From a virus (taxonomy: Duplodnaviria; Caudoviricetes): 64,000 nt of DNA. Shown here one piece after another: positions 13,070 to 15,170 of this stretch (positions within the stretch are counted from its first letter, which is position 1; each line of letters starts with the position of its first letter). Under the pieces are notes generated by a model. It searched no databases. It worked only from the letters and a program-made list of their open reading frames with translations, and was not told where the DNA came from. Location of the stretch: IMG/VR virus record IMGVR_UViG_3300028591_000086, positions 131,467-195,466 of that record. One strand, written 5' to 3'. The position numbers and the translations under genes were made by a program.

Positions 13070-13165
13070 GAAAGAAAGCTGTGTTGTAATGTCATATTCT
13101 ACTAGACAGAAATAAAATATTGAATCTTCTGTCTAGTAGCATTTGATTCAATACAGTTATTCTTT
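13070..13165 (+). ncRNA. Long hairpin RNA candidate
   Basis: CTACTAGACAGAA/TTCTGTCTAGTAG plus outer AGCTGTGTTG/CAATACAGTT; follows AACA-N6-TG at 13053. Confidence 0.35.
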
Positions 13166-13184
13166 ATATATTATGCCTATGTAT

Positions 13185-13258
13185 GGAGTTATGGAAAAGT
13201 TGGTTAATTCGTCAGCTTGTCACGCTGAAGATCCCGGGTTCGAGTCCCGGTAACTCCG
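13185..13258 (+). tRNA. tRNA-Asp(GTC), copy 1
   Basis: Cloverleaf; anticodon arm TCAGC-TTGTCAC-GCTGA; GGTTCGAGTCC T-arm; CCA not encoded. Confidence 0.95.
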
Positions 13259-13265
13259 TATAGTC

Positions 13266-13337
13266 TCCCGGATCGTATAAAGGTAGTTACATCGGCTTTT
13301 GGTGCCGATTGTGGGGGTTCGAGTCCTCCTTCGGGAA
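13266..13337 (+). tRNA. tRNA-Gln(TTG)
   Basis: TCCCGGA/TTCGGGA acceptor; TCGGC-TTTTGGT-GCCGA anticodon arm; canonical T-arm. Confidence 0.9.
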
Positions 13338-13341
13338 TAAA

Positions 13342-13442
13342 AACGATTCGAGAAAAAGCTAAACCTATATGCTCATAATTCGCAGCATTTAATTTGCGGC
13401 GCGAGGGAATAGGGAGATTGAGAAGCATAAACTCGAATCGTT
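13342..13442 (+). ncRNA. ~100-nt structured RNA candidate
   Basis: Perfect 11-bp closing stem AACGATTCGAG/CTCGAATCGTT; inner CCTAT/ATAGG and CGCA/TGCG pairings. Confidence 0.5.
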
Positions 13443-13452
13443 ATTAATGTGA

Positions 13453-13535
13453 AGGAGCGTATCAGCGCGGTCTTATAAACCGTCCAGTATAATGCTTGTA
13501 ACTGGTGGATGTGGGTTCAAATCCCACCGCTCCTA
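13453..13535 (+). tRNA. Non-canonical D-armless tRNA-like RNA, anticodon TAT (Ile), long variable arm
   Basis: AGGAGCG/CGCTCCT acceptor; only 7 nt (TATCAGC) before the GCGGT-CTTATAA-ACCGT arm; CCAGT/ACTGG extra stem; GTGGG-TTCAAAT-CCCAC T-arm. Confidence 0.7.
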
Positions 13536-13594
13536 CTCGGAATCCGTTTGGATTCCATTCTATTCTGTATTCTAGTAATGTCCAGTATGGATAA

Positions 13595-14222
13595 GAATGT
13601 GTTGTTACGCGTATATGTTACGCGTATAAAGTTATCTTAAACACATATCAAAACAGATCATAAATGAATGAAAGGATAATTTGTGATTTGGCATGAAGAA
13701 AGGATCAGCAGTTATGAACTTCTGAAAAAAGTTGGAACACGTCATGTTAGGACTGAAATTCCGTCACTTTCAACAGTGGGTAAAGTCCGAGTATTGATCA
13801 ACCGAGGCGATTGTCGGTTTCGACATAACTTCATGCGTTGATTTTAACGTGAAATACCGAATTGAAAGAAGTGCTTAGTTTTATGGTTTTCTAATGCTAA
13901 CTAACTCTGATTAGGGATGCTGTAGAACAGGAGCAACGTTTTTAATAGAGCTTGATGAGTTAGACAAAAAAGATCGAGTTACTAATCACTCGGTTGTAGA
14001 TTTATCAGATGTTAAAGTTATAACCTTTCTTAAATAACAACATGACACTGAAATGAATCTATTAATTGACCACTTAGCTTGTTTAGCTGTTTGGTGGGCG
14101 ATAACAAAAAGCGCTCGTAATCCATGCGAGATGCAGAGCTCGTGCATCAAAAACGAATCTATTGATTCTTAGAGGAGGATTACGTCACTTTATGATTTTC
14201 TACGTTGGAATTTCATAAAGTG
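13595..14222 (+). ncRNA. Large ornate ncRNA candidate (GOLLD/ROOL size class)
   Basis: ORF-free stretch between tRNAs with many stems: GTGTTGTTA/TAACAACAT, GCATGAAG/CTTCATGC, GGACT/AGTCC, CTAACTC/GAGTTAG, GATGCA/TGCATC, CACTTTATGA/TCATAAAGTG; boundaries approximate. Confidence 0.55.
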
Positions 14223-14244
14223 GTCCAGTACGAGAACCTGGTAT

Positions 14245-14318
14245 GGAGTTATGGAAAAGTTGGTTAATTCGTCAGCTTGTCACGCTGAAGATCCCGGGTT
14301 CGAGTCCCGGTAACTCCG
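14245..14318 (+). tRNA. tRNA-Asp(GTC), copy 2 (identical to copy 1)
   Basis: 79-bp perfect direct repeat 13181-13259 / 14241-14319. Confidence 0.95.
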
Positions 14319-14337
14319 TTTTATGCTGAATTCTAAC

Positions 14338-14525
14338 AGCCGTTGTTCGATTTAATATAAACGATAGAAGATATATAAGGGTATATGCACTGTCGTTGTT
14401 CAGTCGAATGATAAAATGGAATATTGTCATTGAGAATCAGTGAATCGAGACGTATATGGCTAATCATTGTATGCGTTTTTAAACTATAAGATTAGACGGC
14501 TTGGAAATACCCTAACTTGTTTCCA
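14338..14525 (+). ncRNA. ~190-nt multistem RNA candidate with possible loop-loop pseudoknot
   Basis: AGCCGT/ACGGCT closing stem, several inner hairpins, AGGGTAT (14378-84) complementary to ATACCCT (14507-13). Confidence 0.5.
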
Positions 14526-14534
14526 GGTATTCGT

Positions 14535-14833
14535 GGCGGGATGGCGGAATTGGTAGACGCCCAGGACTTAGGAATGAATTTGAGCACCTAGATAGGAAAC
14601 TTCTAGTGTGAATGCTATCTAAACGGAGAACTCTGTAAAATGACAACTTCGTACTAACTGAATTAATTCAGGAATGCGTAGAGACTATACGGTAGCCACC
14701 TAAACAGAAAAGCATGGTGAAGACATAGTCCAGACCACCAAACGATGTTCTTTACATTGGTAACGAAAGTTATAGTGGTATGAAAATCCTGTGCTGAGTA
14801 ATCAGCGTGTGAGTTCAAGTCTCATTCCCGCTA
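14535..14833 (+). tRNA. tRNA-Leu(TAA) interrupted by a group I intron; exons 14535-14569 and 14783-14833
   Basis: Spliced arm CAGGA-CTT^AAAA-TCCTG; GGCGGGA/TCCCGCT acceptor; long variable arm GCTGA-GTAA-TCAGC. Confidence 0.9.
14570..14782 (+). mobile_element. Group I intron (213 nt, no ORF) in the tRNA-Leu anticodon
   Basis: 5' site after U, terminal G, P7 GACTAT/ATAGTC, GTAGAGACT and AAGACATAGTCC core motifs. Confidence 0.9.
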
Positions 14834-14838
14834 CCTAT

Positions 14839-14960
14839 GGAAGTGTGCGCAGAATAGTAAATGCGGAACGCGAGATAATATCAACCGCTCAAACGGTAGC
14901 TAAAAATTGGCCCGGTAGGAATTAACCTTTTAATTGAGGGTGCAACTCCCTTTACTTCCT
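14839..14960 (+). ncRNA. tRNA-like RNA with the anticodon arm replaced by a multi-hairpin insert
   Basis: GGAAGTG/TACTTCC acceptor; CGCA/TGCG D-stem; GAGGG-TGCAACT-CCCTT T-arm; ~70-nt middle with ACCG/CGGT and GCTA/TGGC hairpins. Confidence 0.6.
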
Positions 14961-14962
14961 TT

Positions 14963-15170
14963 AAGAGATAGTCACCAAACAGGAGAACTTGATATTGATG
15001 AATTTCTATGTACTGATTACGCGCGTGTGGTCAGAGATTAGTGTTCATCGAATCTTGTTCTGCTCTTTCTAGAGCAGATAGGGTCTGGTCAACTCTAATA
15101 CGTGGTGAATATTAGAGGATTTTATACGCCTGTCTTACTGTGACTCCCTAGGGAGTCACTATCTCTTTTT
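14963..15170 (+). ncRNA. ~205-nt structured RNA candidate ending in a terminator
   Basis: AAGAGATAGT/ACTATCTCTT and ACAGG/CCTGT long-range stems; CTGCTCT/AGAGCAG and CTCTAATA/TATTAGAG hairpins; GTGACTCCC/GGGAGTCAC hairpin plus T-run. Confidence 0.5.

Follow-up and report, generated by a model that had tools for sequence, protein, structure and literature searches.

Conserved structured RNAs alternate with tRNAs and tRNA look-alikes in a rumen jumbo phage

GOLLD and ROOL RNAs are found near tRNA islands in phages, where they are possibly co-transcribed with the tRNAs, and it was in cow rumen that ROOL was discovered (PMC5737381; 10.1101/2024.12.08.627333). Both assemble RNA-only cages to which no function has been assigned (10.1101/2024.12.08.627333). 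The subject of this report is an array of about 2.1 kb in a rumen jumbo phage. It lies in the window, the 64,000-nucleotide (nt) stretch that was analyzed, which forms the last 64 kb of the 195-kb IMG/VR virus record IMGVR_UViG_3300028591_000086 (about 70% complete). Within this array, four conserved structured RNAs (A, C, D and F) are interleaved with tRNAs and two tRNA look-alikes (B and E). With a probability of about 60%, the array is a single plus-strand, RNA-only transcription unit from which these four RNAs are processed and released to act in trans. Structured RNAs in a phage tRNA island are a known kind of system; RNAs A, C, D and F are themselves new, and the alternation of tRNAs and tRNA-shaped shells with them, together with natural swap variants, makes the locus an unusually clear instance.

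Comparisons can be made with several described systems. GOLLD (RF02032) and ROOL (RF03087) are multi-helix RNAs of roughly 600-800 nt from phages and prophages, and RNA C resembles them in size, niche and rumen source. However, there is no covariance-model similarity, and the one island described here carries four different novel RNAs plus two tRNA look-alikes. The tRNA cluster of phage T4 is polycistronic and includes the small stable species 1 and 2 RNAs (rnaC and rnaD) as well as the homing endonuclease segB; for some of its tRNAs the CCA end is not encoded, and their maturation depends on host RNase BN/Z and the CCA-adding enzyme. The array shares with it the extra RNAs among tRNAs and the absence of encoded CCA, and relatives of the array contain homing endonucleases. 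The extra RNAs of T4, in contrast, are about 120-140 nt long and adjacent to each other rather than alternating with tRNAs, and that cluster is not known to contain an RNA of some 700 nt, an intron in a tRNA or a D-arm-less tRNA.

In mitochondrial tRNA punctuation, tRNA-shaped units part the other RNAs of one precursor, the arrangement proposed for the array. The products punctuated in mitochondria are mRNAs and rRNAs, and metazoan mitochondrial tRNA-Ser(AGY) has no D arm. In the array, the interleaved units are phage non-coding RNAs, and B is D-arm-less like tRNA-Ser(AGY) but has a long extra arm. The intron of the array occupies the same host tRNA and the same U34|A35 site as the cyanobacterial and plastid tRNA-Leu(UAA) group I intron, but it resides in a phage, is compact (213 nt), and is polymorphic among close relatives, in which it can be absent, free of an open reading frame (ORF) or equipped with an HNH gene.

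GOLLD and ROOL, situated beside phage tRNA genes, are among the most conspicuous RNAs without a known function, and the array adds new members to this group. The locus offers a compact natural comparison, with four unrelated structured RNAs and two tRNA mimics in one putative transcription unit, and with close relatives in which tRNAs, endonuclease genes and an intron are cleanly swapped. Several questions thereby become testable: whether such RNAs are released by the tRNA-processing machinery, what they do jointly with the phage tRNAs, and whether a D-arm-less tRNA can work in bacteria. The locus is, in addition, an example of a phage tRNA-Leu(UAA) gene with a mobile group I intron, inserted at the site that is classic for cyanobacteria and plastids.

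Conserved RNAs between the tRNAs

All elements of the array lie on the plus strand, and in the window the gap between each folded RNA and a neighbouring tRNA, tRNA look-alike or terminator measures 0-8 nt. The elements are listed below; z is the folding score of the spacer fold relative to dinucleotide shuffles.

13031..13094, plus strand: conserved upstream block, candidate promoter or leader; about 45 nt invariant in seven aligned arrays
13099..13139, plus strand: perfect hairpin of 13 base pairs (bp) ahead of the first tRNA; z = -5.5
13143..13172, plus strand: sigma-70-like promoter candidate, TTGATT-18-TATATT; consensus match only
13184..13259, plus strand: tRNA-Asp(GUC), copy 1; ARAGORN and Rfam, 67.6 bits
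13266..13337, plus strand: tRNA-Gln(UUG); ARAGORN and Rfam; present in every full array
13341..13446, plus strand: RNA A, about 105 nt; z = -3.3; compensated pairs; no Rfam match
13453..13535, plus strand: tRNA-like B, UAU anticodon; Rfam tRNA model 29.9 bits against a cut-off of 29; z = -3.0
13539..14241, plus strand: RNA C, about 700 nt, multi-helix; z = -5.3; covariation; no Rfam match
14244..14319, plus strand: tRNA-Asp(GUC), copy 2, identical to copy 1; ARAGORN and Rfam; present in all full arrays
14320..14531, plus strand: RNA D, about 210 nt, two domains; z = -2.9; covariation
14535..14569, plus strand: 5′ exon of tRNA-Leu(UAA), ending at U34; ARAGORN with introns allowed
14570..14782, plus strand: ORF-less group I intron, 213 nt, with a terminal G; RF00028
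14783..14835, plus strand: 3′ exon of tRNA-Leu(UAA), then A-C-C, U; ARAGORN with introns allowed
14839..14960, plus strand: RNA E, tRNA-shaped shell (acceptor and D stems, T arm); conserved in relatives
14961..15178, plus strand: RNA F, about 210 nt, ending in an intrinsic terminator; z = -6.5; covariation

Each element named in the original prediction was recovered at or near its predicted position by ARAGORN, Rfam searches, folding and a terminator scan. The accompanying count of at least seven unexplained RNAs proved slightly generous, given that the intron is of a known kind, that B scores as a marginal tRNA, and that the hairpin at the front may lie outside the transcript and serve as a DNA or regulatory element.

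Relatives were reached through two flanking proteins (in several rumen data sets) and through a DNA-word scan of JGI metagenomes, which together yielded about eight distinct arrays: that of the window and seven others, all from rumen metagenomes. Their common order is the upstream block, the hairpin, a variable first slot, tRNA-Gln, A, a tRNA(CAU) or B, C, tRNA-Asp, D, tRNA-Leu(UAA), usually E, and then F with the terminator. The first slot holds tRNA-Asp in the window, and in relatives it is filled by tRNA-Ser(GCU), filled by an E-like shell, or empty. The alternation of tRNAs with folded RNAs is kept even though the identities of the tRNAs change. Conservation, covariation, order and strand are direct observations: A, C, D and F recur in all seven other arrays with many compensatory changes, the opposite of the lack of covariation that would have told against the original prediction. 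Between the window and the most divergent relative (L007), the RNAs are 74-82% identical, compared with 60-64% at the third codon positions of flanking genes.

The largest of these RNAs, C, is represented by eight versions of 667-756 nt, in which long invariant runs stand between segments of variable length. Its consensus fold (RNAalifold) comprises 169 pairs in 21 helices, with standard pairs in 96.8% of cells. Covariation was judged against two controls, the shuffling of alignment columns and the sliding of pairing partners by 1-3 columns. Forty-three pairs of RNA C are changed on both sides, a number that none of 500 shuffles reached (13.2±2.8) and that compares with 4-8 after sliding; about ten pairs vary in two or more sequences. 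Many invariant pairs in the plus-strand fold are G·U, which would be A·C on the opposite strand, and this fits an RNA read from the plus strand. The predicted helix joining the ends of C holds in seven versions and is largely broken in L007, which keeps a local 3′ hairpin (CCAG / UACGAGAAC loop / CUGG) by way of two compensated pairs, while two internal domains (alignment columns 239-449 and 705-801) are closed by supported helices. The loop GAGCUCG at about 14124-14130 is invariant, sits on a stem with three compensated pairs and contains a 6-nt palindrome, GAGCUC, of the kind that mediates self-association; this is only a lead, because roughly one such palindrome is expected by chance among some 28 loops.

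The smaller RNAs display similar signatures. RNA A, present in all distinct versions aligned, consists of an 11-bp closing stem, an inner CCUAU/AUAGG helix and the conserved single strands AAAAAGCUAAAC and GAGAUUGAGAAGC. Both helices contain compensated pairs: several positions in the closing stem, with more when the L037 version is read by hand, and one in the inner helix. RNA D has 68 pairs, of which 98.2% of cells are paired, and 15 are compensated, relative to 2.6±1.3 in shuffled alignments and 1-2 after sliding. In the joint alignment of E and F, 20 compensated pairs are found (9.8±2.1 shuffled, 3-9 slid), and all 20 lie in F. The outer stem of F is formed by its 5′ end paired with the tail of the terminator, and a conserved GUGGUGA loop caps a helix with five covarying pairs. 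The proposal that each spacer is closed by its own terminal stem consequently stands for A, by covariation, for F, where the compensation in the outer stem was read by hand, and for E, by its acceptor stem. For C it stands only in part, with the long-range closing helix broken in the most divergent relative and the local 3′ hairpin supported there.

Protein-coding content does not account for the array, which is bounded by the stop of a 432-amino-acid ORF (13021) and the start of a 149-amino-acid ORF (15194). The longest open frame in 13022-15193 spans 78 codons in the standard code, and no credible ORF appears in this interval when TGA, TAG or TAA is read through or under single-stop codes. 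Moreover, the aligned relatives keep no frame open in common, and their variable columns show no 3-periodicity, being spread evenly over the codon phases. On these grounds a protein-coding reading is rejected, in agreement with the earlier view that the array contains no credible ORF.

Searches of Rfam with the whole region, and with C, B and E, at gathering thresholds and at E≤10, matched only the tRNA and group I intron families; A, C, D, E and F matched no Rfam family. A likeness of AAAGUCCG to the CR-I element of RNase P was dropped, since no RNase P model scored. In a blastn search of 50,697 phage records, tRNA-Asp and the Leu intron were the sole parts with matches, exact-word scans of IMG/VR returned nothing, and a scan of GTDB genomes returned chance matches only. 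A sequence look-up for C found no look-alike outside the source genome. In the JGI word scan, two loci were real (L034 and L037) and the other 14 were chance matches, for a gain of one distinct version.

tRNAs, tRNA look-alikes and the tRNA-Leu intron

As had been proposed, CCA is encoded by none of the tRNAs on direct reading; the tRNA-Leu sequence continues with A-C-C and then U, and so has CC but not CCA. A search of the record, which is 70% complete, for a phage CCA-adding enzyme (PF01743) found none. The tRNAs of the array read AUA, UUA, GAU and CAA, all of them frequent phage codons.

The slot between A and C is occupied in the window by B. Its acceptor (7 bp), anticodon and T arms are normal, the anticodon loop is CU-UAU-AA, an extra arm of 22 nt is present, and a 7-nt linker stands in place of the D arm. 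In the match to the tRNA model (RF00005), B has 4 nt where the model has 15 D-arm positions, and its variable region contains an insertion of 24 nt. ARAGORN at default settings misses it; RF00005 scores it at 29.9 bits in the window, and the same sequence reaches 36 bits in L006 and L024. Five other loci contain B by exact match (L006, L016, L024, L025 and, in part, L017), and the remaining arrays hold a canonical tRNA(CAU) in this slot. Because B is identical across loci whose neighbouring sequences differ, recent spread is suggested, and cassette exchange may explain why it is identical wherever present. A UAU anticodon would read AUA without lysidine modification, and AUA accounts for 41 per 1000 codons in this phage.

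RNA E is a further tRNA-shaped element, in which the acceptor stem has 7 bp, the D stem has 4 bp and the T arm bears the loop UGCAACU, and which also contains two extra hairpins. It has no RF00005 match at E≤10 and no 7-nt anticodon loop. Where other lineages have E, it is 97% identical. The counterpart in L007 (10262-10390 of that contig) resides in the first slot and has a long anticodon-like arm together with the same two extra hairpins; its acceptor stem differs in sequence and still forms seven standard pairs. B and E are placed exactly where a tRNA-shaped cut site would be needed, the former parting A from C and the latter tRNA-Leu from F.

The tRNA-Leu(UAA) gene (14535-14835) is interrupted between U34 and A35 by the 213-nt insert. 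The group I intron model RF00028 scores it at 41.2 bits (E = 1.7e-8) over its full length (1-253), a significant score that is below the curated cut-off of 50 bits, as expected for so compact an intron. The first exon ends in GGACUU, whose final U is able to pair with G, and the intron ends in GGUAUG. Intron-less alleles in L011, L019 and L021 read GGACTT-AAAATCC, which are exactly the joined exon ends of the window, and this settles the intron boundaries and indicates that the intron is mobile. The gene also lacks the intron in L022. An ORF-less version of 207-213 nt is present in the window, L007 and L037, whereas in L009 and L016 the intron contains an HNH ORF and measures 659-673 nt. A 735-kb uncultured phage unrelated to that of the window (L004, LR756501.1 187284-193534; also LR756503) likewise carries a tRNA-Leu(UAA), at 3002-3292 of the L004 locus, with a 205-nt group I intron at U34|A35 that is 71% identical to the one described here; phage tRNA-Leu introns are thus not confined to the clade of the window.

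The two tRNA-Asp genes of the window are direct repeats, 100% identical and 1,060 bp apart, that enclose tRNA-Gln, A, B and C. Array L022 also has two tRNA-Asp copies, which differ from each other, and the pair in the window therefore looks like the result of a recent duplication or gene conversion.

Processing model and competing explanations

The original prediction had regarded the region as a polycistronic precursor from which cuts at the tRNAs release a set of non-coding RNAs. Its structural side is borne out by the conserved folds described above; transcription, cutting, stability and action in trans are steps that we infer. A single tRNA-punctuated precursor fits the anatomy of the array, with its one strand, one upstream block, one terminator and gaps of 0-8 nt. 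The upstream block contains AACA-N6-TG together with the invariant run TAGAAAGAAAGCTGTG..TTGTAATGTCA, and in L007 it travels with the array, not with the upstream gene. As a separate observation, the block is the most conserved non-tRNA stretch of the locus and reads AACA-TATTTG-TG at 13053-13064. The stem of the leading hairpin is kept in relatives through compensatory changes, and a -10-like sequence, TATATATT, is invariant across the aligned arrays about 10 nt before the first tRNA. At the other end, the terminator scan places a single intrinsic terminator at 15140-15159, followed by a T-run, and its stem covaries.

In the proposed pathway, transcription would start at the upstream block or at the -10-like box and end at the terminator within F. 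Host RNase P would cut at the 5′ end of every tRNA-shaped unit and in doing so set the 3′ ends of A, C and D. In view of the missing CCA, the 3′ ends of the tRNAs would be trimmed by RNase Z or exonucleases, which would set the 5′ ends of A, C, D and F, and the host CCA-adding enzyme would complete the tRNAs. The group I intron would self-splice from tRNA-Leu, and the folded RNAs between the cuts would be freed as separate, stable RNAs. The tRNAs would then serve the abundant A/U-rich codons of the phage, while the released RNAs would act in trans during infection, in the manner suggested, so far without proof, for ROOL, GOLLD and the species 1 and 2 RNAs of T4.

Several observations weigh against this model. 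A single sequence, probably that of the divergent lineage L007/L008, accounts for approximately three-quarters of the compensated pairs in C, and all versions of the array belong to one narrow phage clade; the independent events are consequently modest in number. Since the long-range closing helix of C is not kept in L007, C may be either one multi-domain RNA or a string of domains, perhaps several RNAs. When the window is compared with L007, the RNAs as a whole are no better conserved than the flanking genes (75-83% identity), with only patches of the array reaching 92-99%, and selection on the RNAs is comparable to that on the proteins, not stronger. In addition, E alone folds no better than shuffles (z = -0.8), the promoter matches are matches to consensus only and no commoner than in shuffled sequence, and a weak terminator-like hairpin follows B, at 13539-13556 in the terminator scan.

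A more ambitious version of the model is possible but less likely than not. In this version, C would be a third large ornate RNA alongside GOLLD and ROOL, abundant and perhaps forming a self-associating particle; B would function, despite its missing D arm, as a tRNA-Ile(UAU) and read AUA without the host lysidine enzyme; B and E would both provide tRNA-shaped handles at which RNase P and RNase Z free the other RNAs; and the island would found several classes of phage RNA, all of these holding jointly.

It could instead be that the conserved spacers act in cis within the tRNA precursor, serving as folding insulators, as entry sites for nucleases or as determinants of processing order, and are degraded afterwards with no function of their own. 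The spacers are indeed always embedded between tRNAs, and their closing stems abut the tRNA ends. Yet some 700 nt with long invariant single strands and about 20 helices go far beyond what insulation requires, and the RNAs persist while neighbouring tRNAs are swapped or lost, as is seen for tRNA-Asn, for the first slot, and for B relative to tRNA(CAU). This explanation is therefore considered rather unlikely. Improbable as well is an origin of the spacers as decaying remnants of mobile DNA (dead introns, scars of homing endonucleases or tRNA pseudogenes, for example) that only recent common descent has kept. Although the locus is rich in HNH genes, has a mobile intron, and contains in E, and perhaps in B, elements resembling damaged tRNAs, compensatory changes preserve the helices, identity is well above that at third codon positions, and the group I intron model finds nothing in the array but the Leu intron.

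There is also little to recommend C as a highly divergent member of ROOL or GOLLD. Like ROOL, it lies in a virus record next to tRNAs, between tRNA-like B and tRNA-Asp, the sample names indicate rumen, and the sizes are similar. However, RNA C alone has no match to any Rfam family at E≤10 with lax filters. The GOLLD model (RF02032; RF01998 is group-II-D1D4-1), with a gathering threshold of 150 bits, gave no match at E≤10 in the whole phage record (21 candidates scored), and the ROOL model (RF03087, gathering threshold 99.1 bits) gave none there either (8 candidates scored), a weak negative because a control search of 14 well-known genomes was also empty. Finally, there is scarcely any prospect that the region acts as DNA, for example as an origin, a packaging site or a protein-binding array with incidental folds, since for all that the leading hairpin is a DNA palindrome with half of it repeated at 36866-36899 (88% over 33 nt, opposite orientation), reading the other strand would turn the invariant G·U pairs into A·C, and the tRNAs, the intron and the terminator all indicate plus-strand RNA.

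Genomic context, mobile elements and a second tRNA-shaped RNA

The genome of the source phage has a GC content of about 28%, and the array (0.38-0.40) exceeds its flanks (about 0.26-0.30). Almost none of the phage genes match Pfam or PHROG, and rumen and bovine metagenomes contain exact or near copies of them on contigs whose lengths reach 258-321 kb. The upstream 432-amino-acid protein has no relative in IMG/VR. The virion protein led to a distant relative (L049, 38% identity), whose 105-kb fragment is free of tRNAs, and two contigs of closer relatives (L005 and L006) stop near the start of the array.

Most relatives contain, between tRNA-Asp and D, an additional spacer of about 85-133 nt, a tRNA-Asn(GUU) and a further 140 nt or so (for instance, L011 3986-4116 and 4191-4330); the tRNA-Asn is missing from the window and from L007. 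The spacers flanking it may be further small RNAs. ORFs of the HNH_3 family occupy three positions in the arrays of relatives: after tRNA-Asp (L007 11542-12108), in the gap between A and B (L016 1913-2473), and inside the Leu intron (L016 3940-4470; L009 3628-4158). The array of the window contains no HNH_3 ORF. To judge from these insertions, the island is a hot spot for homing elements.

Elsewhere in the window, a second tRNA-shaped RNA of 111 nt is located at 36996-37106 (Rfam tRNA 44.7 bits; z = -3.9). Its acceptor, D and T arms are normal, and its anticodon arm is a long helix of about 15 bp with an insert of some 38 nt; a hairpin and T-run (37150-37180) follow it. The half-copy of the leading hairpin (36866-36899) lies about 100 nt upstream of this RNA, which hints at a control site common to both loci.

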